Assembly: GCA_044345405.1 (NCBI GenBank)
Contig: JBIJBE010000017.1
Coordinates: 1-64,000, forward strand
Length of the DNA stretch: 64,000 nt
Direction: 5' to 3'
Source of the DNA: Bdellovibrionota bacterium
GTDB taxonomy: Bacteria; Bdellovibrionota_C; UBA2361; OMII01
Of this stretch, positions 2,531 through 49,694 are shown piece after piece. Below the pieces are notes generated by a model. That model made no database searches. It worked only from the letters and a program-made list of their open reading frames with translations, and was not told where the DNA came from. Every line of letters begins with the position of its first letter. The first letter of the stretch is position 1. The position numbers and the translations under genes are program-made.

Positions 2531-2958
2531 GAGTCTCCCTATTGTTTCTTTATTTAATATAAATCTAGTGAATAATAGTAAGTCAGGCCCATTTCCGGGG
2601 ATAAGTTTCCTAACTATAAGTTTTTAAACTTTAAATTCCACTTAAAACGTGTTGGTAAGCTCTGCAAAATTTTTGAACTTACCCACAGCCAAATTTTATC
2701 TCCACAACGATCCCGATCTTCCCACCCCCCTCCACCAAGTTATCCACAGGGTTTTACCGGGTGGGTACGCTCGCTACGCATCGTCCTATGTGCGGCGTGC
2801 ACATCTTTACTGTCTCGCGCGCTTTCAAAGGGAAGAATTGTACGTGGATGACTGAAGGAACCTGTTGATAACCCGGGTGAAAACCTCTGAATTATCCACT
2901 TGGACACAAGGCGGTGAAAGTTGTTGGTAAGGTTAGTAACTACTTGTTTTTAGTAGCT
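2531..2958. promoter_or_regulatory. Probable oriC (dnaA-dnaN intergenic) with DnaA boxes and DNA-unwinding element
   Basis: Perfect TTATCCACA 2740-2748; near-boxes 2679-2687, 2863-2871, 2892-2900, 2650-2658, 2922-2930. Minus strand reads TTATCCCCG-GAAAT-GGGCC-TGACT-TACTATTATTCACTAG-ATTTATATTAAATAAAG just before dnaN. Confidence 0.85.
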
Positions 2959-6427: not shown

Positions 6428-6746
6428 TGTGGATAACTCTGTGGGAAACTCTGTGGATATCCACAGGATAACTTGAGGGATACTCAAGTGACGACACCCC
6501 ACTATCTACTTTCAGTCGGTTATCTCATTCAAAGTTGCGCGCGATTCTCAACAGACTTTTCACAGGTGATAACAGGTTTTCCACAAAATTGTGGAAGATC
6601 TGTGGATAACCTTACTATCAACCTGGATTTATATATCTTTAGGCCGGTAGAGAGTTATCCACAGCGGGTGTGGATAAGTACCTTCTTCTGTGGGAAACGG
6701 TTGATGCTAACTCATTCAAATATTTTTACTTTCAGACAATAAAAAG
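6428..6746. promoter_or_regulatory. Dense DnaA-box cluster (second origin half or DnaA-titration site)
   Basis: Four perfect boxes (6428-6436, 6601-6609, 6655-6663, 6669-6677); near-perfect boxes at 6452-6460, 6457-6465, 6577-6585, 6440-6448, 6689-6697; AT-rich 6711-6746. Confidence 0.85.
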
Positions 6747-32000: not shown

Positions 32001-34392
32001 GGAGGTCCTTATCGAAGAATTCGCGACAGGCGTCGACGCTCATCGAGAGGATCTCGTGGACGTTTCGTCCATGGTACTTTACTTCAAGAACTGAGGCTTG
32101 AAAGCGCATCCCGAGGCACGACTCGCACTCCATGAAGACGTCGCTGAGGAACTGCATATCCTCACGAATGAATCCGGCGCCCTCACACGCGGGACACCGC
32201 CCGCCCGCGACGTTAAACGAGAAAGATGACTTGGAGAGCCCGCGGGCTTTGGCTTCATCGGTTGAAGCTAACAGGTCTCGGACGCGGTCCCACATCTTCG
32301 TGTAGGTGGCGATATTGGCGCGTGGTGTTTTTGAAAGTGGGGACTGATCGATGAGGAGGACCTGTCGGACGTGGTGGAATCCAGTGACCTGCGCGTCGAC
32401 CGTGCTCTCGCCTGGAATGACACCGGTGTACAGTTCGTAGGCGTTTTCGATTACCTCTTTCAGGAGTGAGCTCTTTCCGCTACCCGAAACACCCGTGAGG
32501 CATACGAACGATTCGAGCGGAATATCGACCGCGAGAGACTTTAAATTTCTATTGCGAGCGTTTCGAATCTCAAGTCGCTTCGCGAAGAGTGGTGGCGAGT
32601 CGTTTAAGTCAAATGGCCGCATCCCCAGCCCCTGCCACTCCTCTTGAGGGCCGCAGAAGGTAACCTCGCCACCTTTCTCGCCCGCCTCAGGCCCTAGCTC
32701 AACGATGGTATCGGCAGCCTCAAGGCAATCGGGATCGTGCTCTACGACCGTGAGAGAGTTGCCACGGTCGGTGAGATCATGGAGCGCTTTAATAAGCTCC
32801 TCTGTGTCACGGGCGTGGAGACCAACAGAGGGCTCGTCCAACACGAAGTGGGTTGAGATGAGATTGCTTCCAACCGCGGATACAAGATTTACTCTTTGCG
32901 TCTCACCGCCGGAGAGTGTGCGAGAGAGTCGATCGAGGGAGAGGTAGGGGAGCCCAAGCGACACGAGGTAGTCCAGTCGACTCGAGATATTTTTAAACAC
33001 CTCCGCTAACTGTCGTGGGAGGCGCTTCGCTTCCTTTAAGGATTTTTGAAGTGAGGTGAACCACGGCGAGAGTTCGTCGAGGGGCATCGAGGAGACCTCG
33101 GCAATCGTTCTCCCATCGATCTTATAGGCGAGGGCGTCCGATTTAAGGCGGGTGCCTCCACAAACGGAGCATTCAACCTGCCCCCGATATCGGGCGAGGA
33201 AGACGCGCACGTGCATCTTGTACTTCTTTCGCTCTAGCCACTGAAACCACGGATTGATGCCGATGTAGGTCCGGGACTTGTGGTTAAAGATCTGATCCTG
33301 TTGCTCCTTTGAGAGCGATGCCCACGGCGCGTCGATCGGGATCCCCTCGCTCTTACAAAAGGAGAGGAGCCTTCGATGCTCATCAGAAGCGGAAGGCCCC
33401 TTCCAACACTCAACAGCGTAGCTCGCGATAGACTTGCTATGGTCAGGTACGCACTTGTGAGGATCGATAACGAGCACCTTCCCGAACCCGTTACACTCGG
33501 GGCACGCTCCGATCGGGTGATTGTAGGAGAAGAGTGAGGGGCGAGGACGCTCAATCGAAACCTCCCCATCGCCGCAGTGATAGGTGTTCTTAAAGATGTG
33601 GGTCTCGTAGCGTTGATGTGGTTCGTGCGCGGTACCGGAAACCGGAACGCGAAGCCACGGGCGAGCGGAGCGAGTTCGTACCTCGATCGCCTCTACGGTG
33701 CCGTTTCCTAACGCGAAACATTGCTCGAGGGATTCTCTGACCCGCTCAGGTGTGAATGAGGAGCTCGAACAACGGTCGAGAATGATCGAGACCTCCTTGA
33801 GCTTCTTAAGGGGAGGGGTATCCTCAAGATTCTCCAGGTTGCCCTTCTTTTTATCAAAGTACCGTGAGTATCCGAGCATCTGGAGTCGCTCGAGGACCTC
33901 TTTTGAGTTCTTAACCTTGAGACCCAGGAGAAAGGTGGAATCTCGTTTCGTCTCGACCCATTTCGCAAGGAGCGAGGTGAGGGACGAGGCATCCCACCGA
34001 GAGAGCTCAAGACCACACTCTGGACACACCGGTGTCGCGACGTTGCTCCACACAATTTTAAGAAAATCGTTGATGTCGGTCATCGAGCCGACCGTGGACC
34101 GAGAGTTGACGATCCGTGTGCGTTGTTGAATGGCGATGGCTGGTCGAACGTTCTCGATCAGGTCCACCTTGGGACGTTTGACCTTATCAAAGAATTGCCT
34201 GGTGTAAGGAGAGAAGGTTTCGATGTACCGCCGTTGTCCCTCAGCGTATATAGTGTCGAAGGCGAGCGATGATTTACCAGAGCCGGAGAGTCCGGTTATC
34301 CCGACAAACGTATCGTGTGGCAGGTCGAGGTTGAGAGCTTTAAGATTGTTCTCTCGGGCCTGTCGTATGGTGAGTTTTGAGCGAGACGACAT
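29008..34392 (-). CDS. uvrA: Double-length (tandem fused) excinuclease ABC subunit UvrA
   Basis: Two UvrA modules (each with YAEGQRRY); four Walker A ([16 protein letters not shown] x2, GVSGAGKS), four ABC signatures, CxxC zinc fingers; 1794 aa. Confidence 0.95.
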
Positions 34393-34457
34393 ACGCGCAA
34401 TCTAACTCGCGAAGAGCACTCGCCGCAACGATTCGAGGCCCTTTTACGATAAAAGTG

Positions 34458-35690
34458 ATGCGCATGGTTTCGAGGCACATATTCAACAGTTCGCTGAAGG
34501 TGCTTACACCTGTCTTCCGGGTACCTATGGGATTGGCGGCAGTGTTGTGCCTCTTGATGGGACCGATCGCGACGGCCGAGCCACATATGTGCGGTATAAC
34601 TGAGAGCGCGCTTAAGGAAGCCGCGAAGCTCCGCGCGCTTTCCCCGAAACATCCGGTCCCATGTGTTGTGCGTTCGCGTCCGGAGATCGAGGTGTTTCTT
34701 CGAGACACCATCGCTAAGAAGTTTCCGAAGGAGACCTTGGCGATGGAGCAGCTTTGGTACCAAGCTATTGGTATCGTGCCGGATGACTACCCCTACGAGA
34801 AAGAGATTGTGCAGGCTTATGTGCAGCAAATCGGTGGCTATTACGATCCTGACAGGAAGGAGTTCGTGATGCTCGATTCTATGCCCGAAAAGCTTCAAGT
34901 TCCGGTAGCTGTTCATGAGCTCATCCATGCGTTGCAGGACCAGAAGTTCGGGCTCTCTCACTTTCTTGATCCTAAGGAGCGAGAGAGCGACGATCTCATG
35001 GCTCGAGCCGCTCTCGTTGAGGGGGACGCTACCGCAATCATGCAGGAATTTATGACCAGCAAATCGAGCAGGTCGCCAAAAGGTCTTTCAGAGGTCACCT
35101 TGCCAGAGTCCGTCGCCAAGATTCCTGAAGCCTTGGAGCGAATCCTGCTTTTTCCCTATCTTGACGGCCTAACGTTTGTTCGTCACGTGCAACGGTTCGG
35201 TGGGATTTCGGCCATAAACGCGGCTTTTTCTAATCCGCCCAAGACATCTCGAGAGGTTCTCCATCCAGAGCAGTATGTGCATCGCTCGTTCAAGCCAGAG
35301 GAGCTTCCGCGCGAGGATGTTGAACGCCCCATTGAAAAGGCCTCCCCCATCTACGCCGATACGGTGGGAGAGTTCGCGGTGTCCGCGCTCTTAAGTACCG
35401 CCTTGTCATCGAAGCACAGGGGCGCCGCATGCGCGGAAGGATGGCGAAGGGATAGAGTTATAATCTTTAAGGGAGATAGCGATACGAGATTCGTCTCGTG
35501 GATGAGTGAGTGGGATTCTAAGGATGAATCGACCGAATTCTATGAGTGTTATCGGGAGATGATAAAGGCTCGGTATCAAAAAGATGTTGGCGGCGAGTTT
35601 GTTTCCGTTTCTCCCGCAAAAGCTATCAAGATATCTCGCTCCGAACGTCGGGTGTCGGTGTTGGTAGCGCTCGGTTCAAGCGCTAAGTAA
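34458..35690 (+). CDS. Secreted zincin-type metallopeptidase
   Basis: GGYYDP, AVHELIHALQDQ (HEXXH), ALVEGDAT, FPYLDG, EVLHPEQY; start uncertain (34458/34464/34527). Confidence 0.8.
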   Translation: MRMVSRHIFNSSLKVLTPVFRVPMGLAAVLCLLMGPIATAEPHMCGITESALKEAAKLRALSPKHPVPCVVRSRPEIEVFLRDTIAKKFPKETLAMEQLWYQAIGIVPDDYPYEKEIVQAYVQQIGGYYDPDRKEFVMLDSMPEKLQVPVAVHELIHALQDQKFGLSHFLDPKERESDDLMARAALVEGDATAIMQEFMTSKSSRSPKGLSEVTLPESVAKIPEALERILLFPYLDGLTFVRHVQRFGGISAINAAFSNPPKTSREVLHPEQYVHRSFKPEELPREDVERPIEKASPIYADTVGEFAVSALLSTALSSKHRGAACAEGWRRDRVIIFKGDSDTRFVSWMSEWDSKDESTEFYECYREMIKARYQKDVGGEFVSVSPAKAIKISRSERRVSVLVALGSSAK

Positions 35691-35776
35691 ACGGTTCTCA
35701 CAAGGAGGGGGCTATGCTTCTCTTTATCTCCCTTGAGCGATACATGGTGACGGACGTAGTTACTCCGCACGCTCGA

Positions 35777-36010
35777 CTAATCTAGCAACGTATTGAAACC
35801 TATCCGAGCCTTCCTTTTTGGTAGGCGAAGCTCTCCGAGAGGGTGCCTATCGTTATTGGGTTCCGTTGAGGTGTTTGCCGCGTCGATAGGTACGGGAGGT
35901 GACGGTGAGTAGCGAGGTGAGGGCTCTAACATATCGGACCAAAGTCCGTAGATGTCGCTATCTTGCCCGATTGGAGCAGGAGCTGCTGAGAGCGTTTTTT
36001 GTGTATTCAT
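35777..36010 (-). CDS. Small Pro-rich hypothetical protein
   Basis: ATG preceded by GGGAGAGGA RBS; 77 aa. Confidence 0.5.
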   Translation of the reverse strand: MNTQKTLSAAPAPIGQDSDIYGLWSDMLEPSPRYSPSPPVPIDAANTSTEPNNDRHPLGELRLPKRKARIGFNTLLD

Positions 36011-36102
36011 GATGTAGTCCTCTCCCTGTGGTTAGGAAACCGTAGCATGGAAAGCTTATTTCAAAGTCTCGGATAGTAGCGACGGATTGATAAATGCGGC
36101 AA

Positions 36103-36142
36103 TGAAAGGGGGGAAAGGGGGCCGTCCCCTTTCCCCACTTTC
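36103..36142. repeat. GC-rich palindrome (REP-like or terminator-like)
   Basis: GAAAGGGGGGAAAGGGG-GCCGT-CCCCTTTCCCCACTTTC. Confidence 0.5.
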
Positions 36143-36365
36143 TGACGCCCGAAGTTGCCATCTCAAGACGCACGGACACCTGCACAAGTCGACAGGGCTA
36201 GAAAGGAAAGTCGCTCATAGAGGGCTGCAACACGAAAAAGGCAGATAGTCATGACTGACACACATTTCCCTTCGTAGGTGGGGAAAATTTCATAAAGCCC
36301 GCGCAACTTTCGCCGCGCGCTACCGATTGTCAGCCATCACCCGTTAATAATCTTCGGAGTCCCTT

Positions 36366-37271
36366 ATGAATACCGTATTCACCGTCACTACTCTCTTTTC
36401 ACTCCTGCTCAGCTTCGCGCGCTCTCCGGTAAGTCTTGATGTCGAACGCACGGTCTCAAAGCGGGAGATGCAGCTCATCTTAGCGGCCTTTGAGGTGGAT
36501 GGCCCGGGGATGACAAAGCAGGAAGCGGAGTTCGCTCGCGCGGCTTTGTTTAAGGCACGCCGCTCCTTGAGCCCTGAGGCGCAATCAGCGGCCGATCTAT
36601 GGCTCGCGAAATCAACGAGTGCCGAGAGCGTTAAGTCACTACCCGTGCGTAGGGTTGAGGCATTTCGCCTTACCTCTGCTTGGTTGCGTGAGATGCGCGG
36701 AACCCAGAGATTGACCGAAGGCGATGCTGGCCTCTTGCTCTCCATACTCGGCTCTAAGCCGAATCCGGTTCGTGCCTATGAGCTGTCCCTGTGGGCTGCT
36801 CGTGAGCCGCTCACCTCTGATGCCAGGGTCGCGGTTGAGCGCTGGATAGCTCGGAGCATCCCTGACTATGGAAACATCCCAGTGGTAAGGGTCATTTCGC
36901 CCGCTATCGAGGGGCTTCAGTGGATGAGCGAGTCTGATTTTCCGATAGGGGTAGTGTGTTTTCCAAAGACTCATCTCTGGCCCCTTACCAAGGCGCAGAT
37001 GCAGAGGCAACTTGGGGAGCCACCTGCGGTGCCAAGCACCGTGAGGTCGATAAGTCAGCTCTTTGGTTGGGTCTCAACGGCGTTACTGGATAGCGATGCG
37101 GCAGAGAGAGCGCGTGCGAAGCGCTTTGATACACTCCGTCGCGTCCTTCAGGAGAACCTTACGTCGATAAGGGCCTACACCTTTGGAGAGATCGACCAGG
37201 ATCTCTTGATTCTCGGAGAATCCAAGGAGAACAGGATATGTGGTATCGTTACTCGGGTTGTGGAGACCTAG
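36366..37271 (+). CDS. Nuclease A inhibitor (NuiA)-family domain protein with N-terminal signal/helical extension
   Basis: C-terminal domain EGLQWMSESDFPI ... GEIDQDLLILG...GIVTRVVET matches the NuiA pattern; hydrophobic N-terminus. Confidence 0.75.
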   Translation: MNTVFTVTTLFSLLLSFARSPVSLDVERTVSKREMQLILAAFEVDGPGMTKQEAEFARAALFKARRSLSPEAQSAADLWLAKSTSAESVKSLPVRRVEAFRLTSAWLREMRGTQRLTEGDAGLLLSILGSKPNPVRAYELSLWAAREPLTSDARVAVERWIARSIPDYGNIPVVRVISPAIEGLQWMSESDFPIGVVCFPKTHLWPLTKAQMQRQLGEPPAVPSTVRSISQLFGWVSTALLDSDAAERARAKRFDTLRRVLQENLTSIRAYTFGEIDQDLLILGESKENRICGIVTRVVET

Positions 37272-37362
37272 GGACGCGAGGCAAAACCTCCTATTCTCCC
37301 TCGTTAACGTGCTCGAGAACGTGACCGTACTCGAACCTCAAACTAAAAATCCCCAAGGCCTT

Positions 37363-37414
37363 TGGTGCACCCTACTTTATCGGATCGCCTATCCTCAAAA
37401 AGTAGGGTGTGCCA
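37363..37414. repeat. Inverted-repeat mini element
   Basis: TGGTGCACCCTACTTT-N20-AAAGTAGGGTGTGCCA. Confidence 0.65.
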
Positions 37415-37463
37415 GGGGGCATGACCGGGGCATTCTCGCCTCCGCTTGATCCCCTTGTTAGCC
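37413..37463 (-). other. attC site, truncated at R'
   Basis: Minus strand GGCTAAC-AAGGGGATCAAGCGGAGGC-GAGAAT-GCCCCGGTCATGCCCCCT then runs into the IR element. Confidence 0.6.
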
Positions 37464-37519
37464 TATGACGAAACATTTTCGTAGATCTCCCGATATCTCC
37501 ATTGTTTGGAGAAGCTACC

Positions 37520-38008
37520 GTGACCGATCGAATTGAATCTCTCATTTACATTATCCGAGAGGAGCGGGTGATGATGGATCAGGATTTAGCAGCGCTCTAT
37601 GAAGTTGAGACCAAGGCTCTCGTCCAAGCTGTTCAACGAAACATTAAGCGATTTCCCCCTGATTTTATGTTTCAGTTATCCTTTCAGGAGTTTACAGCTT
37701 TGAGGTCACAAATTGTGACCTCAAAGGGGCGAGGAGGACGGCGAACAGCCCCGTACGCATTCACCGAACATGGCGTCGCTATGCTCTCAAGTGTGCTGCG
37801 GAGCGAGCGTGCAGTGGAGATAAACATCCAAGTCATATGAGCATTTGTCAAACTTCGACAACTTGTCGCCTCAAATGCAGAGTTGACCGGCCGATTGAAA
37901 CGTCTCGAGCAAAACTATGATGCGCAATTCAAGGTCGTTTTCGACGCGATCCGGCAGCTCATGAGCGAAACGACACACGTGCCACCGAAGAGAAGAATCG
38001 GATTCTAG
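37520..38008 (+). pseudogene. ORF6N-domain DNA-binding protein with internal nonsense codon
   Basis: [50 protein letters not shown]; in-frame TGA at 37838-37840 where I-R-AFV is expected; frame continues AFVKLRQ...KRRIGF to TAG 38008. Confidence 0.85.
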
Positions 38009-38010
38009 AA

Positions 38011-38217
38011 TTATCGAGATGGGCGCTCCTCCGAAAGCGCTCGCAGAATCGAGAGTAACCATGGGGAGAGAAAAAATCCCGTCGGCGGCACCAGCGCGTC
38101 TATGAGTGGGCGATCGGAAACAATGACTACCAACACGAAAATCATAGTCACATAGGCGATACCCGTGATGGAGAGCCACCGCTCACGGCTTGTCTCCCAT
38201 GCCTTATTCGACTCCAC
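38011..38217 (-). CDS. Small hypothetical membrane ORF (possible cassette remnant)
   Basis: 68 aa, GTG start, hydrophobic segments; lies inside the array. Confidence 0.3.
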   Translation of the reverse strand: MESNKAWETSRERWLSITGIAYVTMIFVLVVIVSDRPLIDALVPPTGFFLSPWLLSILRALSEERPSR

Positions 38218-38341
38218 TCGTTAATTGCGATTGCATATAGCGGTAAGTTCTTTCTCAACATCAGCGAGCCGCTCTAGGAGCTTGCGTCGTTCGATGGCGT
38301 CTTGCTGGACGGTTTTGTTACTGATGGGTGAGTTGCTTTGG

Positions 38342-38397
38342 GGATAACGGCGAAAATCTGCGGCGCTGCATTCGCCCGCAGGATTTGATTGTTATCC
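38342..38397 (-). other. attC site (56 bp)
   Basis: Minus strand GGATAAC-AATC-AAATC(C)TGCGG-GCG..CG-CCGCA-GATTT-TCGCC-GTTATCC, with an extra unpaired base in L''. Confidence 0.8.
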
Positions 38398-38443
38398 ACT
38401 ATTAAAGGCGAAACTTTCAATCGTTTTTCACGATTACGTATGT

Positions 38444-38950
38444 ATGGAGCACAAAATTGAATCAAAAATCATTACCATCAAGGGACAGCGCGTCATCCTC
38501 GATAGCGACTTAGCTCAGTTATATGGGGTCAGCACGATGCGTCTCAATGAACAGGTTACTCGAAATCTTCGCCGATTCCCGAGTGACTTCATGTTTTCAC
38601 TGTCGTTCCAGGAGTTTAAAGACTTGATATCGCAAAATGCGATATCAAGTTCTCGACACGGTGGGAGAAGAAAACCACCTCGATTCTTCACCGAATACGG
38701 CGCAGTAATGGCAGCCAATGTGCTGAATAGTGATGTCGCGATTGATGCGAGCATCATGATAGTCAGAGTGTTTATAAGATTAAAAGCAATCGCGCAGGAA
38801 CACGCAGACCTCAAAGCCAGGTTGCAGATGTTGGAGCAGAGGGTTGCCAAGGGATTTTCCGAGCATGCCGAGGAGCTTCAAGAAATTAGATTTGCGCTAG
38901 CAAAACTTGAGGAGCCACCGGAACCTCGGAAGAGGCGGCTCGGATTCTAG
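38444..38950 (+). CDS. ORF6N-domain DNA-binding protein
   Basis: IKGQRVILDSDLAQLYGV, RNLRRFPSDFMF, FTEYGAVMAANVLNS, C-terminal coiled coil and RRLGF. Confidence 0.92.
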   Translation: MEHKIESKIITIKGQRVILDSDLAQLYGVSTMRLNEQVTRNLRRFPSDFMFSLSFQEFKDLISQNAISSSRHGGRRKPPRFFTEYGAVMAANVLNSDVAIDASIMIVRVFIRLKAIAQEHADLKARLQMLEQRVAKGFSEHAEELQEIRFALAKLEEPPEPRKRRLGF

Positions 38951-39048
38951 AATTAGGTGAAGGTTTGCGCGGCGAGTTTCGCACAAGAACCTACCTAGTC
39001 AAAAAGGATATCTAAAGGAGCAAAATCCTGTGCACTTAATTGTTATCC
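38951..39048 (-). other. attC site with non-canonical R'
   Basis: Minus strand GGATAAC-AATTAAGTGCACAGGATTTTGC ... GCAAACCTTCACCTAATT followed by CTAG instead of GTT. Confidence 0.55.
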
Positions 39049-39423
39049 CGCCTTCGTGTCTTGACTAAAGACATTCTTCCAGTGCCCGTCAGCGTTTTGC
39101 CAAAGAGAGCTGATATACATTTTCTCCGGCACACTATCTGAGGAGCCGTTCGCTCGCACCCAAACAGCGAGGTACAGGAGCATAACTAACGACTCAGATA
39201 AGACTAGAATTTGTGGATCTCGAATTTCGTATCGCCGCGCCAAAGGCCCGTTTCGCAGGGGCGCACAGTGAGCCTGTTTCCCGGTAAAGCCAGTCGAATA
39301 AACTCCGATAAAGTTATCTGCCAGCACTCGCGCATCAGCTTCGGCGTCTCCAGCGACAAAGGCATCCCAAACTTGGGATTCGAGAGCGATGAATTGATCA
39401 ACTGTTAATCGTTGTGGCTGCAT
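39043..39423 (-). CDS. NTF2-like/SnoaL-like (DUF4440) cassette protein
   Basis: ALESQVWDAF..GDAEAD..LADNFIG, SSLW..DGHWKNVFSQDT; stop lies in attC R''. Confidence 0.85.
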   Translation of the reverse strand: MQPQRLTVDQFIALESQVWDAFVAGDAEADARVLADNFIGVYSTGFTGKQAHCAPLRNGPLARRYEIRDPQILVLSESLVMLLYLAVWVRANGSSDSVPEKMYISSLWQNADGHWKNVFSQDTKAG

Positions 39424-39439
39424 TTTGGCTCGCGAAGTG

Positions 39440-39533
39440 GGATTACGTTTCAAACAACTTGCCGACCTTTAACTCGTCTCACTTATCACCAAGCTATTCA
39501 ATGGGTCGGCTCAGTTGCTTTGCCTGGTTATCT
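39440..39533 (-). other. attC site (94 bp), R' mutated to GTA
   Basis: Minus strand AGATAAC-CAGGCAAAGCAACTGAGCCGACC ... GGTCGGCAAGTTGTTTGAAAC-GTAATCC. Confidence 0.75.
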
Positions 39534-40001
39534 CCCATTCGTGCGGCGAATTTTCGTTCCCACCTGGCCTAACGACATAAACAAAATTCCACCTGCAAAA
39601 AATAAAGCAAAAGTTGGGAGAATGAATTCTCTTTCCGGTTGCCTAAGATAATTGGGATTATCTGGCAAATACGAAAATTCAATTTTTGCGCCTTCTGTTA
39701 ACCAGTCAGATCCAAGCAAAGTTCCTGTTTGTAGACGTCCAGAGGTATCTTGAAACTCCACCGTATAAAGTGGCCTTCGGATTATTCGTGGGCCGCCAAA
39801 GTGTCCTCGCATCATGCTGTATTTGCCAACCACACCAGGAGGGCTACCGATATCGTTTTCCTTGATTTGAAAGGAACGAACAGTTCCACGGGTAGTAACC
39901 GCATGTCGTACAAAATTGTAGTAATCAAAAAGAAAGTATAGCGAATAACCTAACGAAACTGCGCCTATTAGAATTAAAGCTAAGCGAATTAATTTTATCA
40001 T
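39528..40001 (-). CDS. DUF3592-like membrane protein (cassette)
   Basis: N- and C-terminal TM helices, TRGTV, YTVEF, YLPDNP; low GC; stop lies in attC R''. Confidence 0.75.
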   Translation of the reverse strand: MIKLIRLALILIGAVSLGYSLYFLFDYYNFVRHAVTTRGTVRSFQIKENDIGSPPGVVGKYSMMRGHFGGPRIIRRPLYTVEFQDTSGRLQTGTLLGSDWLTEGAKIEFSYLPDNPNYLRQPEREFILPTFALFFAGGILFMSLGQVGTKIRRTNGR

Positions 40002-40036
40002 TTAACGCAGGTTATACACTGGCAGGCAATTTAGGG

Positions 40037-40129
40037 AGATAACTTTGCGCGGAGCACGGCGAGCCACTCCACAATTTAAATTACATACTCACTTCGCGGG
40101 CTCGCCTGTGTTCCCGCGCTTGGTTAGGC
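40037..40129 (-). other. attC site (93 bp)
   Basis: Minus strand GCCTAAC-CAA-GCGCGG-GAACAC-A-GGCGAGCC ... GGCTCGCC-GTG-CT-CCGCGC-AAA-GTTATCT. Confidence 0.85.
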
Positions 40130-40483
40130 ATCATCTGCTCCTTCTAACTCTTCGGGCTCGAACTTGTCAGTGCCCATAACACGACCAAAAGCAGAGCCAG
40201 TGGGCGCCTGAAGAAATGGAATGATGGCAGGATCATAATTGCAAAGAGTGTTCACCTCATAAATCGCAAAGTGATCTGGGTTGTCTGAATACTCCTGCGA
40301 CTCGTCACCGGCGAAGAACCTCCAGCCACTGTCATTTTCTTTGTCGGGCTGCTCTCGGTACATGTAGCCAATCCGCGCGCCGTCCACCGTGATGCGGTCT
40401 GACGCGTAGCAGCCGCCCATGTTCGGAATGAGTCTCTGAATCTGGTCGCCTGGAATCTTAAAAGCTTTATCGAGCGGATTCAT
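40124..40483 (-). CDS. DUF2185-domain (putative immunity-type) cassette protein
   Basis: GGCYASDRI, GYMYRE, DSGWRFFAGDE, NTLCNYDPAIIPFL. Confidence 0.85.
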   Translation of the reverse strand: MNPLDKAFKIPGDQIQRLIPNMGGCYASDRITVDGARIGYMYREQPDKENDSGWRFFAGDESQEYSDNPDHFAIYEVNTLCNYDPAIIPFLQAPTGSAFGRVMGTDKFEPEELEGADDA

Positions 40484-40735
40484 ACTAAGATGCCTAACAT
40501 AGGTATTGTGCAGATCCGGCGATCTAGCACGTTACGTGTCAGTAATAGGGTACGGCACCTCGCATCTCTACCTCAACCACAATTAATTCTTCATAATTGC
40601 AGCCGGTTAAGGCGGTCCTCTCTTTCAGGCCTATCCGGTGTGTACGTCGAGTGAGGTAGATCACCGGATCGGCGATTGCATGAAACGCGATCGTTTCGAA
40701 CTCCTATTGAGTAAAACCAGTTCCTCGACGGAAGT

Positions 40736-42109
40736 CTAAAACTCCCCGCACTCACAACGAAGCGCCTCTTCAAGTTGCGGAAGGATATAGGTGTAGCCTG
40801 AATCAACCAACGCTCGTGGAGCCACTCGACAACTCGCAAGGAGCACCGCGTCAGCCACTTCGCCGAACATCAATCGCAATATAGCGGCGGGCACTGGAGC
40901 GATGGTGGGTCTTCGCAAGACCTTGCCAAGGGTCTTCGTGAATTCTCGATTTGTTACAGGCTCTGGCGCCACGGCGTTAAACGCGCCACGCATCGAAGAT
41001 GTGTAGATAGCGTGCTCAAAGATTCCGAGGAGATCTTGAAGCGCTATCCAACTCATGTACTGGCGCCCACTGCCAAGAACGCCCCCCGCGCCAAGTTTAA
41101 AAATCGGAAGCATCTGTTTAAGAGCGCCGCCGGCGGCGTTAAGAACGGTGCCGATCCGAATGTGAACCAGTCTTGTTGAATCGTGGATATTGTCTCGAGA
41201 GCTTGCCTCCCACGCTTTGCATGTCTCAGCAAGAAAGCCGGATCCTGCAGGTGACCGTTCATCGGCAACTGTTTCTCCCGTATCGCCGTAGTAGCCTATC
41301 GCGGAGGCCATAATCACAACCTCAGGCTTACGCTCTAGTTGGGCGATAGTTTTGCAGAGAAGCGCTGATGACTTTGTGCGGCTCTCAAGGATCCTTCGCT
41401 TATACTCTGGGGTCCATCGATGCCCGACGAGGCTCTCTCCGCCGAGATGAATCACGACATCCACTCCCTCAAACACAGAAGGATCGAGCACGTGTCGATC
41501 TGGGTCCCAACTCCTCTCTTCAGGATAGCGAGCGGGGTGACGAACAAGCCGCCGAACGGTGTGGCCAGCGGTTGAGAGGAATGCGCACAGCGCTGATCCT
41601 ATGAATCCGGAGGAGCCGCTTACCAAGATGGTCTTACGAGGAGCGTCTTTGAAGCGCGCGTGCAGATCCAAATCATTCTGTAGAATCATGTGACGGTATC
41701 GAAATAGACGATTCAGCTCTCGGATAACGAGCGGTTTCGCCAAACCGATACCATAGGGAAGAGCGAAGTGTATCTCGTCGCGCATGCAGCACGATCGTTC
41801 GTTGTTCGCGATGAAGCGGTGGTAGTGCTTCCACGATCGAAAGGGACCCCGCACCTGCTCGTCACAAAACTGCTCGTTCTCACGGTATTCCCGATGAATG
41901 AGCCTCCAAGAGATGCCGAGTGGACCCAGCACTGGTATCTTGATGTGGACCGGAGAACCGTCACGGAGAGACTCAGGAGGCTGAATCACCCGGACGGGAC
42001 GCCACGGAGGATTGAATCGCTCAAAGGCGCCGGTTCGCGTGTGCCAGGCGAAAACCTCCGTTGGAGAGTGAGGAAGAACACTTTCCCGGCAAAACGAAGG
42101 ATTTTTCAA
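40736..42109 (-). CDS. TIGR01777-family NAD-dependent epimerase/oxidoreductase with N-terminal SRPBCC domain
   Basis: FAWHTR..FCDEQVRGPFRSWKHYH; SGSSGFIG, ASAIGYYG, GSGRQYMSWI, NAVAPEPVTN. Confidence 0.9.
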   Translation of the reverse strand: MKNPSFCRESVLPHSPTEVFAWHTRTGAFERFNPPWRPVRVIQPPESLRDGSPVHIKIPVLGPLGISWRLIHREYRENEQFCDEQVRGPFRSWKHYHRFIANNERSCCMRDEIHFALPYGIGLAKPLVIRELNRLFRYRHMILQNDLDLHARFKDAPRKTILVSGSSGFIGSALCAFLSTAGHTVRRLVRHPARYPEERSWDPDRHVLDPSVFEGVDVVIHLGGESLVGHRWTPEYKRRILESRTKSSALLCKTIAQLERKPEVVIMASAIGYYGDTGETVADERSPAGSGFLAETCKAWEASSRDNIHDSTRLVHIRIGTVLNAAGGALKQMLPIFKLGAGGVLGSGRQYMSWIALQDLLGIFEHAIYTSSMRGAFNAVAPEPVTNREFTKTLGKVLRRPTIAPVPAAILRLMFGEVADAVLLASCRVAPRALVDSGYTYILPQLEEALRCECGEF

Positions 42110-42114
42110 GATCG

Positions 42115-42546
42115 TTATCCTACTACGCGCTTCGCGATCTCGCTTGCGCTCTTGCCGTCGTATTGGCCAGCGTAGTTGTCTTTGAGATGTTTCATCACCA
42201 CGTTGAGCGCGAGGCCGGGCGTGTTCTCTTTGAGAGTGACGAGGATCTTTTCAAGCTCTTCCGCGGAGAGTTGTTTCGGTAAGAACTCTTCGAGGATAGC
42301 GATCTCAGCCTCAAGTTTAGCTTTCTGCTCAGCTCGGCCCGCTTGCTCTTCAAATTGAATCGCCTCTTGGCGTTTCTTGACCTCACGTTGCACGATTTGA
42401 AGACTCTCAGTAGCTCCGAGCTCATCAACGGATTTTTGCATCTCTTCGTACTGCATCTCACTGAGCACTGAACGGATAGTTTCAAGTCGCAACTTGTCTT
42501 GAGCTTTCATGGCGCTTTTGAGCGCTTCCTTGAGAGTGGCTTTCAT
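42115..42546 (-). CDS. GatB/YqeY domain protein
   Basis: LKSAMKAQDK.RLETIR, KKRQEAI, EIAILEEFLPKQLS, DGK; start ATG 42546. Confidence 0.9.
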   Translation of the reverse strand: MKATLKEALKSAMKAQDKLRLETIRSVLSEMQYEEMQKSVDELGATESLQIVQREVKKRQEAIQFEEQAGRAEQKAKLEAEIAILEEFLPKQLSAEELEKILVTLKENTPGLALNVVMKHLKDNYAGQYDGKSASEIAKRVVG

Positions 42547-42587
42547 GGTGTGTGGTCTTATCCTTAAGGTTTCAAAACGGCAACCGA

Positions 42588-42992
42588 CTACTTCTTGCGA
42601 TATCCCTCGATGAACTCCTGGAGCTTCTTCGCCGTCTCGGCGCTGATGAGATGCTCCGTTTTGCACGAGTCTATCTCAGCTTGCTCTGGTCGTACGTTGA
42701 GTATATTCGCCAAAAAATCGTACAAGATGTTCTTTCTCATGAGCACAGCCCGAGCTACGGCTTCGCCCTCCTCGGAAAGCGCGAGAAACTTGTTCTCGTC
42801 CTCAAGAATAAGGTTCTTCGCCTTGAGAGACTTTAAGTTGATGGAGGCGCTTCCCGTGGTGATGTTAAGCTCCCGAGCGACGTCCGTTACACGGGCGTAC
42901 CCGCGCTTCTCTCGCAGCTCAAGGATCGCGAGAAGATGATGAGCGGCGCTGTGGGTAATATTGTTCTCTTCGAACTTCTTCCAAATATCCAT
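42588..42992 (-). CDS. DtxR/MntR-family metal-dependent transcriptional regulator
   Basis: ARVTDVARELNIT..SAS wHTH, LSEEG, CKTEHLIS; GAGGTAAGG RBS. Confidence 0.9.
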   Translation of the reverse strand: MDIWKKFEENNITHSAAHHLLAILELREKRGYARVTDVARELNITTGSASINLKSLKAKNLILEDENKFLALSEEGEAVARAVLMRKNILYDFLANILNVRPEQAEIDSCKTEHLISAETAKKLQEFIEGYRKK

Positions 42993-43059
42993 TACCTTAC
43001 CTCTTCACTAAGGACCCTCCGAACTTGTTGTGCCGGAGGGGCGATGGTTTCGTGGAGAT

Positions 43060-43091
43060 CTATAGTTGATAAATCTACTCAACTATAGTTG
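43060..43091. promoter_or_regulatory. Palindromic putative operator between the regulator and the sco-cox operon
   Basis: CTATAGTTGA-N9-TCAACTATAG plus overlapping CAACTATAGTTG palindrome. Confidence 0.6.
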
Positions 43092-43239
43092 GGAGAGTAC
43101 TAAGGGGGGTTATGCATGTCAAACATTTGTTGGTGTGTGGATAATGATGGTTTGGTGAGAGTTATGTTGGGTATAAAGAGCCGATTAGACCGGCCAGTTG
43201 GTTGAAAAGATTTTGTATTTAGCCGATGATTTAGGGACC

Positions 43240-44088
43240 ATGGCAACCTATGGCCCCACCCTCACTGCATACGCCAGACGCACCATTCTCGTTATGGCTC
43301 TGTGCTGCTGTGCGGTGTTCCTTGCTCCGATGAGGGCGCAGGCGATTGAAGATCCTGGCGCTATGGCCGCGCAAGATGTTGGTATATTTACACAATTAGG
43401 GACTCAGGTTGATCTCAATCGACCATTCACGGATGTTAACGGCGTTACAAAGCCGCTGAAGGATTTCGCACTTCCGGGGAAGCCCATCGTAATCGCTCCC
43501 GTCTACTACAAGTGTCCGCGGTTGTGCGGTCTCCTCCTGAACGGAGTGTATGACCTCCTTAATGAGCTTCCGTTGAAGCTATCCAACGATTACTCGGTTC
43601 TGGTGGTTGGGTTTGACCCAACCGAGACCCCGACAGACGCCAAAGCGGTGATGGATAAATTTAACGCGCGACTGGAGGGTGATGCTCTCAAGGGGAGCGG
43701 GGCGATACACTATGTAGTGGGAACGCCGGAGAACGTCTCGGCGCTCATGAACGAACTAGGGTTTAAGTTCGTGAAAGATGGAGTAGATTTTGCTCACTCG
43801 GCGGCGGTTATGATATTGACCTCAAGTGGCCTCATCTCGCAATATTTCACCGGGATAATGTTCCCGTCGTGGGATGTGCGCCTCTCGCTAGTCGAAGCCT
43901 CTAAAGGTGGTATCGGTACCGCTATAGATCATTTTTTGCTCTACTGCTTCCGATTTGATGCCGTCAAAGGTAGATACACGTGGGCGGTTATAGGTTTGCT
44001 TCGAGTTGGAGGCGCGCTTACGCTCATCGGTCTCGGTCTTGTGTATTATTTCTTTGTCAGGAATCGCCGAGGTTCCGCAGCAAGCTAG
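43240..44088 (+). CDS. SCO1/SenC-family copper chaperone
   Basis: YYKCPRLC (CxxxC), FAHSA His, C-terminal TM helix. Confidence 0.9.
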   Translation: MATYGPTLTAYARRTILVMALCCCAVFLAPMRAQAIEDPGAMAAQDVGIFTQLGTQVDLNRPFTDVNGVTKPLKDFALPGKPIVIAPVYYKCPRLCGLLLNGVYDLLNELPLKLSNDYSVLVVGFDPTETPTDAKAVMDKFNARLEGDALKGSGAIHYVVGTPENVSALMNELGFKFVKDGVDFAHSAAVMILTSSGLISQYFTGIMFPSWDVRLSLVEASKGGIGTAIDHFLLYCFRFDAVKGRYTWAVIGLLRVGGALTLIGLGLVYYFFVRNRRGSAAS

Positions 44089-44130
44089 TGAGACCGGAAG
44101 GATTTTTTAGGAGTAACGATAGAGACTGGT

Positions 44131-45435
44131 ATGTTGGGACTGTTAGGACAGCAAGGCTCTGACTTTGCACACAAAGTAGATTACGCCCACGATGTAGTTA
44201 CGATCATCTCCGTCATCTGCACGGTAGCGATCGTAGGCGTAATGTTATACTTCGCCGTTATCTACCGTCAGCGTGATGGCAAGGACCACGAGACTCCACG
44301 CATCGAGGGTAACAACACCCTTGAGATTATATGGACTGTTTTTCCGACCCTCGTATGTATCTGGGTCGCTTGGCTCGGATACGATTCCTTCGTGGCTCTT
44401 CGCACTCCTCCAGCGAACGCGATGGAGGTTAACGTTACGGGTCGTAAGTGGGCCTGGGATTTCACCTATAAGAACGGTAAGAAAACGACAGGCGAGCTCG
44501 TTGTTCCTGTCGATGAGCCAGTCAAGCTTGTCATGACCGCCAAAGATGTTCTTCACTCGTTCTTTGTGCCGGTGATGCGAACCAAGGCAGACGTTATTCC
44601 AGGTCGCTACACCTATGAGTGGTTCCGTCCGATTCAAACCGGAGACTTCCAGGTTTTCTGTACTGAGTACTGTGGAAACGAGCACTCAAAGATGTTGGCT
44701 CGCCTCAAGGTTCTTCCAAAGGCTGAGTTCGAGCGATGGCTCGCTGATGACAGCGAAGCTCGCAAGCTAGCTTCGCTCAAGCCTTCAGATCGAGGTAAAG
44801 AGCTGTACGTTTCGAAGCAGTGTGTAACGTGTCACAGCTTGGATGGTTCTCAACGAGTAGGTCCGTCCTGGCTCAAGATCTTCGGCAAGGAAGGTAAACT
44901 CGCGGACGGTTCGACCTATAAAGTTGATGAGAACTACATCCGTGAGTCGATCCTTCAGCCTCAGGCCAAAGTTGTTCAAGGGTACCCAGCGATGGGCATG
45001 CCGAGCTACCAAGGGCAGCTCTCGGATGATGATATCACCGGCCTCATCGAGTTCATGAAGACCCTCGATGGAACTCAGAAAGTTGAGGTTGCGCCAGCTC
45101 TTCCGAAGAAGAGCGCCGCGTCCACAGCTGGCATGACACCGGCTGAGCGAGGAAAAGCTCTCGTGAACGATTCGGGCAACCTCTGTGCCACATGTCACAG
45201 CATCGATGGCTCAGCGATGGTCGGTCCATCCTTCAAGGGTCTCTACGGACGTAAGGAGAAGCTCTCTGATGGTAGCGAAGTTACCGTCGATGACGCCTAC
45301 ATTAAGGAGTCGATCTACAAGCCGATGGCTAAGATCGTCCAAGGATACGGTCCGGTAATGCCAGCTATGTACGAGGGCAAGCTCTCGGATCAAGACGTGG
45401 CGGATATCACTGAGTACTTAAAGACGCTCAAATAA
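44131..45435 (+). CDS. coxB: Cytochrome c oxidase subunit II with two fused cytochrome c domains
   Basis: LEIIWT, DVLHSF, CuA motif CTEYCGNEHSKM, two CxxCH (CVTCH, CATCH). Confidence 0.95.
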   Translation: MLGLLGQQGSDFAHKVDYAHDVVTIISVICTVAIVGVMLYFAVIYRQRDGKDHETPRIEGNNTLEIIWTVFPTLVCIWVAWLGYDSFVALRTPPANAMEVNVTGRKWAWDFTYKNGKKTTGELVVPVDEPVKLVMTAKDVLHSFFVPVMRTKADVIPGRYTYEWFRPIQTGDFQVFCTEYCGNEHSKMLARLKVLPKAEFERWLADDSEARKLASLKPSDRGKELYVSKQCVTCHSLDGSQRVGPSWLKIFGKEGKLADGSTYKVDENYIRESILQPQAKVVQGYPAMGMPSYQGQLSDDDITGLIEFMKTLDGTQKVEVAPALPKKSAASTAGMTPAERGKALVNDSGNLCATCHSIDGSAMVGPSFKGLYGRKEKLSDGSEVTVDDAYIKESIYKPMAKIVQGYGPVMPAMYEGKLSDQDVADITEYLKTLK

Positions 45436-45447
45436 AGGGTAGTAACT

Positions 45448-47073
45448 ATGGCAGCGCACGCATCAGCAGCAGTAAACGAGGAATTAAACTACCTCAATTG
45501 GCAGAAGGGTATCTGGTCATGGCTTACATCCACTGACCACAAGCGAATTTGCTTCCTGTACCTTTACGCGATCATCTTCTTCTTCCTTGCGGGCGGCATT
45601 GCCGCTCTCTTGGTTCGAACTGAGTTGGCGTTCGCAGGACCAACGATCATTACGGACCCGCACACCTACAACGTACTCTTCACGATGCACGGGGTGTTCA
45701 TGATCTTCCTCTTCGTCGTTCCGGGAATTCCCGCGACACTTGGAAACTTCCTTATTCCGCTCATGATCGGAGCCAAGGATGTGGCGTTCCCTCGTCTCAA
45801 TCTCTTCAGCTGGTACGTGTACATGATCGGCGCAGCTATCGGAGCTGTCGCGATGTTCAACCCAATCGATACTGGATGGACCTTCTACGCGCCCTACAGC
45901 ACGACGACCGGGACCTCCGTAAGCTTGATGGTTTTCGCCGCGTTCGTGCTCGGGTTCTCATCGATCCTTACCGGACTTAACTTCATCGTTACGATCCACC
46001 AGCTTCGCGCCCCTGGCATGACCTGGATGCGACTACCAGTATTCATCTGGGCATCCTACGCGACCGCGGTTATTCAGACGGTTGCGACCCCGGTAGTGGG
46101 AATGACCCTCCTCCTTATCATCGCTGAGCGCGCGTTCGGTGCTGGTATTTTCGATCCATCGAAGGGTGGTGACCCAGTACTTATGGAACATCTCTTCTGG
46201 TTCTACTCTCACCCAGTAGTATACATCATGGTGCTTCCAGCGTTCGGCGTGGTTGGAGAGATCATCCCGGTGTTCTCACGTAAGCCGCTCTTCGGATACA
46301 AGATGGTGGTGGTATCCTCGATGGCTATCGCCGCGGTTGGATTCATCGTGTGGGCTCACCACATGTTCGTAGCGGGCATCTCGGACTTCTCGGCTAAGTT
46401 CTTCTCGATCGTAACCTTCCTCGTAGCTATCCCGACCGCCATTAAGGTGTTCAACTGGGTGAGCACGATGTACAAGGGGTCGATCTCCTTCAAGACGCCG
46501 ATGCTCTACGCGATGGCGTTCGTGTTCCTCTTCATGGTAGCGGGAACAACCGGTATCTATCTCGCGATGCTTGGAGTTGACGTGTACTACCACGATACGT
46601 ATTTCGTTGTGGCGCACTTCCACTACACCATTCAGGGTGGAGCGGTAATCGGACTCATCGCAGCGCTTCACTTCTGGTTCCCGAAGATGACGGGCAAGAT
46701 GTACAACGAAACCGTTTCGAAGTTCGCGTTCGCTGCGCTCTTCATCGGATTTAACCTCACGTTCATTCCGCAGTTCATCCTCGGAATGAATGGTATGCCT
46801 CGTCGATATTACGACTACCCAGTTGAGTATCAGACGTTGCACACCATTTCGACGTTAGGAGCGTACCTCAACGGCTTCGGCTATAGTTTCGCGCTTGTGA
46901 ACCTTCTTTGGACCGCGCTGTTCGGGAAGGTGAAGGCTCCCCGCAATCCGTACAACTCTCATGGCTTAGAGTGGCAGACTCAGTCACCTCCTATTCACGA
47001 GAACTTCGCGGAGATCCCAGTTGTGACCGAGGAGCCGTACAGCTACGGAACGCCCACAGGACGTGGCCACTAA
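45448..47073 (+). CDS. coxA: Cytochrome c oxidase subunit I (A2 type)
   Basis: TDHKRI, FPRLN, GWTFY, FWFYSHPVVY, VWAHHM, VVAHFHY, GMPRR. Confidence 0.97.
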   Translation: MAAHASAAVNEELNYLNWQKGIWSWLTSTDHKRICFLYLYAIIFFFLAGGIAALLVRTELAFAGPTIITDPHTYNVLFTMHGVFMIFLFVVPGIPATLGNFLIPLMIGAKDVAFPRLNLFSWYVYMIGAAIGAVAMFNPIDTGWTFYAPYSTTTGTSVSLMVFAAFVLGFSSILTGLNFIVTIHQLRAPGMTWMRLPVFIWASYATAVIQTVATPVVGMTLLLIIAERAFGAGIFDPSKGGDPVLMEHLFWFYSHPVVYIMVLPAFGVVGEIIPVFSRKPLFGYKMVVVSSMAIAAVGFIVWAHHMFVAGISDFSAKFFSIVTFLVAIPTAIKVFNWVSTMYKGSISFKTPMLYAMAFVFLFMVAGTTGIYLAMLGVDVYYHDTYFVVAHFHYTIQGGAVIGLIAALHFWFPKMTGKMYNETVSKFAFAALFIGFNLTFIPQFILGMNGMPRRYYDYPVEYQTLHTISTLGAYLNGFGYSFALVNLLWTALFGKVKAPRNPYNSHGLEWQTQSPPIHENFAEIPVVTEEPYSYGTPTGRGH

Positions 47074-48751: not shown

Positions 48752-49594
48752 ATGAGAACGCTTTTAACCACCTTTGTTGTTCTGTGTTGTGCGCTATGCG
48801 CGCCAGTGATGTCGCACGCATGTCCTCTTATCTCCGGATTGCCTGACTACAACTGTGACGGTGAGCTCGTCATCTCCGTTGTCGGAGATAGTCTCGTGTA
48901 TGGGACCGGCGATACTCGCAACGATGGATATGGTGGCTACGTCCTTCGCGCCCAGGAATCGTTGCCAGGAATTACCATCCACAATTTCGGATATCCCGGA
49001 GTGACGACGATCGCGCTCATCGCCAAAATCAAGAGAGCCTTCGGGAAAAGAGGCTTAAGCCCTCTCGCTGAGGCGATGGTGAAATCTGACTTTATCGTCA
49101 TCGATGTTGGTAGAAACGATGAGTGGTCTGAGTCGTACGCTGAGACTGCCGCCGCTCTTAAACGGTTGCGTGTAGATATTGAGGATGATGTGAGGGAGGT
49201 CTCAGGCCACAAGCCCCTTGTAGTAACCGCGGTGCTCATGATCACCCGAAAGCTCAAAAAGGGGGCGTGGATAGCTGAGTTGAATCGATACATCTCGGCC
49301 TCGAACTCGGTATCGACTCCCGCCGATCTTCGCTTTGACTCTGTCCCATGGAGGCTCTGCGGCCCTGACCGTATTCATCCAACCTCGAAGGGTTACGACC
49401 GCCTCGCTGGAAACTTTATCAAGTATATTACCCGGACGTATCCCGAACATGTTCAGAGATTGCGCAAAGATAGGGACCTCGACGGGCTCTACGATATCTT
49501 TGAGGCGAGTCGATTTGGGACCGATCCCCTTAAGCCCGATACCGACGGGGATGGTCTTCTTGACGGATTCGATCCAAATCCGCTCAATCCATAA
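48752..49594 (+). CDS. Secreted SGNH/GDSL hydrolase with C-terminal Ca-binding (DxDxDG) repeat
   Basis: GDSL, GRND, DRIHP; DRDLDGL..GTDP..DTDGDG. Confidence 0.9.
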   Translation: MRTLLTTFVVLCCALCAPVMSHACPLISGLPDYNCDGELVISVVGDSLVYGTGDTRNDGYGGYVLRAQESLPGITIHNFGYPGVTTIALIAKIKRAFGKRGLSPLAEAMVKSDFIVIDVGRNDEWSESYAETAAALKRLRVDIEDDVREVSGHKPLVVTAVLMITRKLKKGAWIAELNRYISASNSVSTPADLRFDSVPWRLCGPDRIHPTSKGYDRLAGNFIKYITRTYPEHVQRLRKDRDLDGLYDIFEASRFGTDPLKPDTDGDGLLDGFDPNPLNP

Positions 49595-49694
49595 CGGTGT
49601 GTGCGACGTCGGCCGTTGTTATGCCCCTCCGATCTTTACTGCTCTCAAACTTCAGTCCAAGATATAAGGTATACGGTCGCGTTCGGAGTTTTCG

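Follow-up and report, generated by a model that had tools for sequence, protein, structure and literature searches.

A 64,000-nucleotide stretch of contig JBIJBE010000017.1 of a Bdellovibrionota bacterium (assembly GCA_044345405.1), hereafter the window, contains two genes for ORF6N proteins, gene 1 (37502..38008) and gene 2 (38444..38950), which lie in a small group of integron cassettes and end in the same 16-mer, TCGGATTCTAGAATTA. According to the original prediction, made from the sequence alone, ORF6N units may enter cassette arrays through this 16-mer and lock the neighbouring cassettes, possibly as a cassette parasite or regulator module. We found that both genes are probably part of ordinary cassettes that carry the ORF6N gene backwards, are partly fused to their neighbours and are decaying, and that the 16-mer probably consists of the codons for a conserved protein end, the stop codon and a five-base coincidence, with no parasite involved. 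The finding as originally posed does not hold, as neither a new entry site nor a cassette parasite is present.

Array orientation and cassette borders

Recombination sites (attC) were scored with R1, a covariance model built from 11 short (56-57 nt) attC sites of the genus, in which the extrahelical bases stand on the top-strand AAC arm (genomes, loci and contigs other than the window are given below by G, L and C numbers). The 56-nt attC of the gene 2 cassette (38342..38397, minus strand) is intact and has the boxes, the imperfect hairpin (DNA fold z = -2.4) and the extrahelical bases of an attC, its AAC arm having an extrahelical C after 3 bp and then a stem of 6 bp. Its R1 score is 48.3 bits on the minus strand vs 15.9 bits on the plus strand; note that this site belongs to the R1 training set. 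The orientation also agrees with the rule, as set out in PMC5027507, that extrahelical bases on the AAC arm mark the attC top strand. Weaker or partial sites are found at 37415-37464 and 39452-39520. As the R1 sites of the window are on the minus strand, the array reads on the minus strand, i.e., this is its top strand, and the two ORF6N genes, both on the + strand, are opposite to the array, as had been predicted. The minus-strand R'' box expected upstream of each start is present as well, 46 nt before the ATG of gene 2 (38444) and, in gene 1, 37 or 55 nt ahead, depending on which of two candidate starts is taken.

The attC of the gene 1 cassette (37415..37464, minus strand; R'' box GGCTAAC at 37458-37464) is truncated. 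The R1 match (24.6 bits, E 5e-4, model positions 8-49) covers 37415-37456 on the minus strand, and the stem with extrahelical C and A is retained; the R' box and the spacer are missing in this genome. The loci L049, L050, L051 and L053 possess a full 56-nt gene 1 attC with AAC-GTTGCT left of the border, which is absent in the window and in G079. The gene 1 unit is present in five other genomes, in every one of which the homology starts at 37421; to the left of this position come different R' partners in the five genomes and then AAC-GTTGCT. At the opposite end, homology with L051 and L053 stops at 38348 and 38349, that is, at the crossover base of the attC at 38342-38397; the R' crossover of this attC, the G at 38348, marks where the gene 1 cassette starts. 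With its borders at 37421 and 38348 next to different neighbours, the gene 1 unit moves as an ordinary cassette. As defined by these alignments, the mobile unit extends from 38347 down to 37421, with ordinary crossover borders and with the 16-mer inside. A 25-nt inverted repeat (37354-37423) is located between a NuiA-like gene and the left end of the array, and the homology border 37421 is at its right edge.

Exchange of units with G|TT borders between genomes was seen for the gene 1 unit, and in G079 the same two flanks (33005-38008 and 40495-46000) enclose different cassettes. The G079 site (L054, contig C271, 7065-11475) contains a 5'-truncated copy of ORF6N and a zinc-ribbon-like open reading frame (ORF), the stop of which is ~10 nt from the gene 1 stop.

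ORF6N genes are carried backwards in the genus

The genome contains six ORF6N genes, two in the window, three in an array on contig C49 (minus strand) and one on C21 without a visible attC; all five array-borne genes are backwards relative to their array. In the genus, ORF6N matches were found in 27 of 35 genomes (up to 8 per genome, many of them fragments). Among 28 genus loci searched, the attC, judged by the better-scoring strand of every site, was opposite to the ORF6N gene in all 20 loci with an R1 hit (E <= 0.05), and R1, being a narrow model, gave no hit in the remaining 8. The predicted inverted orientation near attC sites was thus observed throughout. As training sites are present in five of these loci and related genomes are not independent, the 20/20 represents a consistent pattern and not a statistical test. 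A further scan of a genome collection retained 80 loci (73 with a usable ORF), among which L055 alone had an R1 hit; narrow as it is, R1 is uninformative on integron linkage in other phyla.

In these cassettes, ~37-55 nt separate the start of the ORF6N gene from its own attC, which precedes it, and the stop codon is at the opposite cassette border. There, other ORF6N cassettes possess an ordinary R' box within ~1 nt of the stop or over it (TAG-G-GAATAAC, TAG-TAGCAAC, TAG-G-GCTAAC, GGA-TAA-C). Given these ordinary boxes, ORF6N genes appear, from the border sequences, to enter arrays as ordinary cassettes. This, together with the position of the 16-mer inside an ordinary cassette, argues against the ORF6N 3' end (GGATTCTAG(AATTA)) as a non-canonical entry site. 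In the C49 array, one ORF6N stop is located inside the R' box of the preceding attC (L010 8187-8193), which reads GGA-TAG-C vs GGA-TAA-C in G079 (L054 8872-8927); with TAG for TAA the box becomes GCTATCC instead of GTTATCC, and the crossover GTT is changed to GCT. The backwards HigA gene on C49 also stops inside an R' box. Where the coding end overlaps or adjoins the crossover, small changes can disable the site. A metagenome scan with gene 2 revealed one close relative (L135, 79% identity), the other 79 loci being distant; the L135 protein runs five residues past the GF of the conserved end, and its TAA is inside the R' box GCG-TAA-C.

Place and composition of the shared 16-mer

The two copies of TCGGATTCTAGAATTA are located on the + strand at 37998-38013 and 38940-38955. 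They are exact, as originally noted, and are the only matches within the window at <=3 mismatches and the only exact copies in the whole assembly (3.59 Mb, 85 contigs). In each gene the 16-mer spans the last codons, the TAG stop and 5 nt beyond. Copy 1 reads (A)TC GGA TTC, TAG, AATTA, in which TTA is the TAA stop of a convergent minus-strand ORF, and copy 2 reads (C)TC GGA TTC, TAG, followed by AATTA as a linker. The original prediction was also right in that the 16-mer extends 5 nt past the stop and contains a palindrome (TTCTAGAA; the complete palindrome is the 10-mer ATTCTAGAAT), and in that no attC separates copy 1 from the minus-strand ORF 38011-38217, whose stop it directly adjoins.

Eleven of the 16 bases represent the codons of a conserved C-terminus ([I/L]GF) and the TAG stop, so the post-stop AATTA alone is left to be explained. 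All six ORF6N copies of the genome carry K(K/R)xxIGF near the end, and G167 and F168 of gene 2 are at least 90% conserved among 64 sequences from many phyla. In the genome-collection scan, GF falls among the 12 C-terminal residues in 54 of the 73 usable loci, but only three of the 73 proteins end exactly at GF. A basic stretch and IGF near the C-terminus, after a low-complexity linker, are conserved across many phyla (loci L055-L134). Codons were counted in the 22 genus ORF6N genes that end in GF-stop: xTC precedes the glycine in 17, GGA is used in 15, TTC in 10, and the stop is TAG in all 22. As these codons are common, the chance that a second gene shares the coding 11-mer is ~0.24. The glycine and phenylalanine codons beside the invariant TAG do vary; the TAG itself may reflect descent or a constraint beside the R' box.

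For the five bases after the stop, two random post-stop pentamers of the same genome are identical with p = 0.0013 and are equal at >=4/5 positions with p = 0.019. The identity hinges on one A/G position, which differs in orthologues: the pentamer is AATTA in six of ten gene 1 orthologues (AGTTA, AATCA or AGCCC in the rest), and AGTTA (G086, L055) or AGCCA (G098) in gene 2 relatives.

The enrichment of the 16-mer at ORF6N 3' ends that the original prediction called for was not observed. The 14-mer core GGATTCTAGAATTA is present in 7 of 124 genomes of the phylum, this genome included; outside it there are two hits at gene 1 orthologues and four at places other than ORF6N genes, and a reversed control gave four hits. 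Within the same 124 genomes, GGATTCTAGAATTA was not found at the end of any other ORF6N subfamily, and no recurrence of the 16-mer, searched by this core, was found at independent junctions beyond descent. Recent local duplication as the source of the 16-mer was also considered. Gene 1 and gene 2 fall in two deep clades of the ORF6N tree (support 100/100), and such a duplication is therefore excluded.

Decay and fusion of the two ORF6N cassettes

Gene 1 is a pseudogene, its reading frame being broken by an in-frame TGA (37838-37840) that was missed in the original prediction; the orthologues in G076, G089, G086 and G103 have R at this position. An alternative genetic code was considered and rejected, as TGA ends 18% of the long ORFs and the orthologues read R. 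The G079 copy of gene 1 (L054 11476-11982; 96% identical, at the matching chromosomal site) contains three other nonsense codons, so gene 1 has decayed independently in the window and G079 lineages.

Convergent to gene 1 there is a remnant of a small gene (38011..38320, minus strand), for the ~104-aa product of which hydrophobic segments and a coiled coil are predicted. A TAA at 38221-38223 interrupts the gene in the window and leaves a 68-aa ORF (38011-38217) with 2 nt between its stop and the gene 1 stop; the gene is intact (104-112 aa) in G086, G089 and G095. No Pfam, PHROG, PADLOC or NCBIfam family was found for this ORF. Its stop stays TAA or TGA in those orthologues in which the pentamer varies (AGTTA, AATCA, AATTA-A). 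The last ~10 codons of the small gene (38011-38320 in the window, 8753-9067 in L049) vary strongly between species. As both gene 1 and its small partner carry nonsense codons, the gene 1 cassette is decaying.

Gene 2 is intact (168 aa) and is joined to a DUF4440 gene in array direction (39043..39453, minus strand; PF14534, E 4e-16), an adjacency kept in L055. The attC of the DUF4440 cassette (38956..39048, minus strand) is degenerate; its R'' box GGATAAC (39042-39048) holds the DUF4440 stop (GGA-TAA-C). In the original prediction, copy 2 of the 16-mer was placed exactly where the GTT of this attC should be. A better reading is that the 16-mer is immediately followed by an R' remnant, GGTGAAG (38956-38962), the top strand of which is CTTCACC vs the expected GTTCACC. 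We read these bases as R' because L055 (88% identical over 38335-39405) has TAG-AGTTA-GGTGAAC vs TAG-AATTA-GGTGAAG in the window and because homology of the window with G086, where DUF218 takes the place of DUF4440, ends at 38961. Most likely, to judge from this comparison, gene 2 keeps a mutated R' box (CTT for GTT on the top strand) five bases past its stop. An attC-like hairpin was not seen at this junction (fold z -0.6 to -1.1 for the window, +1.4 for L055), and an alternative R1 match at 39006-39048 (minus strand) is weak (10.1 bits, E 2.9). With no attC fold in either sequence, the DUF4440 site is decayed whichever alignment is right.

A working attC is thus lacking between the small ORF and gene 1, and a decayed one separates the DUF4440 gene from gene 2. 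The part of the original prediction in which neighbours are locked therefore stands insofar as both ORF6N genes are joined to a neighbour without a working attC. Its attribution to an act of ORF6N does not, decay or loss of attC being the better reading.

The ORF6N proteins

Both window proteins match PF10543 (ORF6N) with 119.2 bits for gene 1 and 104.5 bits for gene 2 (gathering cut-off 27.8), and they are 42% identical over 165 residues. Each matches three PDC-S05 profiles of PADLOC over nearly the full length (gene 2 E 1.8e-46, gene 1 E 4.4e-55; residues 2-156 and 7-150) as well as anti-repressor families of PHROG (E 5e-22 for gene 2). The AlphaFold model of the gene 2 protein (64-sequence alignment; predicted local distance difference test score 82) has an N-terminal alpha/beta domain, a long helix (97-137) and a second helix, and its low-confidence tail carries KRRLGF. 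A sequence search of the PDB gave nothing below E 0.6, and Foldseek gave no PDB match at E <= 0.001, the weak top rows being Ski/Dachshund and MarR/MerR DNA-binding domains. By homology, the two proteins can be classed as DNA-binding-type, phage anti-repressor-like proteins; a role in phage defence is suggested by the PDC-S05 match alone.

Rest of the array and the integron of the genome

The rest of the window array (39452..40495, minus strand) comprises an attC-like 69-nt site (39452-39520), a 157-aa ORF (39528-40001) and an Imm33 gene (40124-40483). From 40495 on, the window is again syntenic with G079. With the TIGR02249 profile, no integron integrase was found on the window contig (C5). 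An integrase is predicted on C49 (C49:17636-18586; 437.7 bits, cut-off 265), and the array of + strand genes that adjoins and diverges from it has an attC after each gene. The good-scoring R1 sites of C49 are on the + strand only, including two non-training sites with 43.8 and 22.6 bits. This integron (L010 = C49:16000-34000; intI at 1634-2662, minus strand) has an Imm33 gene as the first one, a backwards HigB/HigA pair and three backwards ORF6N genes; Imm33 genes are thus found both there and in the window array. Far from the array, GGATAAC...GTTATCC (6604-6660) and GCATAAC...GTTATGG (49589-49624) score ~12 bits with the attC model (E 0.6-0.8).

Proposed origin of the junctions and alternative explanations

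In the explanation that we favour, the region from 37421 to ~40495 would be a small cluster of integron cassettes without an integrase on its contig, and each ORF6N gene would be a backwards passenger with an attC ahead of its start and its stop at the other end of the cassette. Such a layout implies that the ORF6N gene has its own promoter. The 16-mer would combine the codons of (K/R)R[I/L]GF, the TAG used by all GF-ending members of the genus, and five bases that coincide in this genome only; in gene 1 these five bases would include the stop of the convergent small gene, and in gene 2 they would be a linker before a point-mutated R' box. Missing or decayed attC sites on the 3' side would have fused each ORF6N gene to its neighbour. 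Fusion of cassettes after loss of an attC is a known fate, described for mobile resistance integrons.

Several observations weigh against this explanation. A sigma-70-like promoter was not found ahead of gene 1 or gene 2 (0 sites vs 2.0 expected). By our own estimates, full identity at 16/16 positions has a probability of roughly 3e-4 for one pre-named pair. The pentamer variants AATTA, AGTTA and AGCCx occur in both subfamilies, and TAG is the stop in 22/22 GF-ending genus genes (L010, L016-L048) vs 43% of the long ORFs in the genome. Homology with G079 breaks off exactly at the gene 1 stop codon (38008), where G079 continues with another convergent ORF. The position 38956-38962 for the R' box rests mainly on one relative, a competing alignment taking GGTGA as attC spacer and the R' box as absent, and the 3'-side attC of gene 2 has decayed in two different contexts (DUF4440 here, DUF218 in G086). 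Finally, since R1 was built only from 56-57-nt sites, it misses longer attC sites, and its silence is weak evidence. The G079 break at 38008, the twice-decayed gene 2 attC and the invariant TAG leave a small probability for a role of the junction itself.

Several other explanations were considered. If the junctions were deletion scars, the R' box next to gene 2 and the whole attC next to gene 1 would have been lost, and AATTA would be a leftover attC spacer, with the 16-mer where R' should be. Indeed, AATTA follows R'' in attC sites of the genus (GGATAAC-AATTA in G077_a and G079_a; also L010 8138-8149), GGTGA-AGGTTTGCGCGGCG after the 16-mer resembles the spacer and L' of a neighbouring attC (GGCGA-AAATCTGCGGCG), and the end of the small ORF looks R''-like in its top-strand reading, CGATAAT. 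However, AATTA is an R''-side spacer, whereas the R'-side spacers beside other ORF6N stops are G-rich (GTCTC, GTTTC, GGGCG); in L055 a proper AAC is present 5 nt further on, orthologues differ in the pentamer, and two precise independent deletions would be needed. We therefore regard deletion scars as unlikely. Short-tract gene conversion between the two 3' ends, which are 942 bp apart, would account for AATTA in gene 2, where the orthologues have AGTTA and gene 1 has AATTA; the last 60 nt of gene 1 in G079 are a mosaic, with 8 of its 19 differences from the window in this part and with 100% identity between its last 45 nt and the G103 allele. One G-to-A change would account for AATTA equally well, though, the flanking identity of just 26/32 nt is short for homologous exchange, and in G086 the ends differ at 2/16 positions in spite of the two genes being adjacent there too, all of which makes conversion quite improbable.

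The idea of the original prediction, that the ORF6N 3' end is a non-canonical recombination site by which the unit inserts beside cassettes and locks them, as parasite or regulator, could draw on the lack of a working 3'-side attC in both window genes, on the varied partners (the gene 1 subfamily abuts a small membrane or zinc-ribbon ORF, that of gene 2 a DUF4440 or DUF218 gene), on the one homology break exactly at the gene 1 stop and on the invariant TAG. Against it stand the ordinary R' boxes of other ORF6N cassettes, the ordinary borders of the cassette that contains the 16-mer, the missing enrichment of the motif and the decay of gene 1 and its partner. Furthermore, the unit encodes no recombinase; ORF6N was the only Pfam family in it, and Rfam gave nothing in the window, so a transposase or an intron is lacking. 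We consider this idea highly improbable. A further possibility, though a rather unlikely one, is that ORF6N forms a mirror-image cassette lineage, with the attC in front and the stop at or inside the R' crossover, which a bacterial integron captured from a phage cassette pool. As its coding end overlaps R', stop-codon changes such as GGA-TAA-C to GGA-TAG-C on C49 can destroy the crossover; such changes would repeatedly weld the gene to its upstream neighbours, and the GF-TAG end would be under selection at the nucleotide level. Ordinary backwards cassettes with decaying sites and a chance coincidence of five bases nevertheless remain the probable explanation.

Comparison with known systems

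In their arrangement, the ORF6N cassettes resemble the toxin-antitoxin cassettes of sedentary chromosomal integrons of Vibrio cholerae, for which an own promoter and the orientation in the array are reported in 10.1101/2022.08.03.502626. Like these, the ORF6N genes are opposite to the attC top strand among forward cassettes and require expression independent of the cassette promoter Pc, and the integron of this genome also possesses a backwards HigB/HigA pair. Unlike them, ORF6N is a single gene and not a toxin-antitoxin pair, and the promoter scan found none.

The attC-targeting elements, IS1111-attC and group IIC-attC introns, are likewise found in arrays beside attC sites. In contrast to them, the ORF6N units have no transposase, reverse transcriptase or intron RNA (Pfam for the units, Rfam for the window), and ORF6N genes elsewhere are bounded by ordinary attC sites. 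There is also a likeness to fused cassettes, in which two genes share one attC: gene 1 travels together with the small ORF in a single unit with ordinary outer borders, and only a decayed attC parts DUF4440 from gene 2. Unlike in fused cassettes, the second gene is convergent and not in tandem, and the same ORF6N subfamilies are found with different partners. At this locus it can be seen how cassettes become fused when a coding end overlaps the recombination site.

According to 10.1101/2024.07.02.601686, anti-phage systems make up many of the cassettes in sedentary chromosomal integrons; neither ORF6N nor PDC is mentioned in the main text of that preprint, the supplements of which may list the family. 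Our literature search likewise did not find ORF6N or PDC-S05 named in an integron context, with the same reservation for preprint supplements. According to 10.1101/2024.09.26.614923, one PDC-S05 representative reduced T7 and T5 plating ~1000-fold in E. coli. Both window proteins match the PDC-S05 profiles; the tested representative, as described there, carries a Virulence_RhuM domain and maybe belongs to another subtype. ORF6N/PDC-S05 is a recurrent integron cassette in one genus, backwards wherever the attC can be scored, and these cassettes are in keeping with the recent idea that chromosomal integrons serve as stores of defence genes, to which they would add a candidate family.

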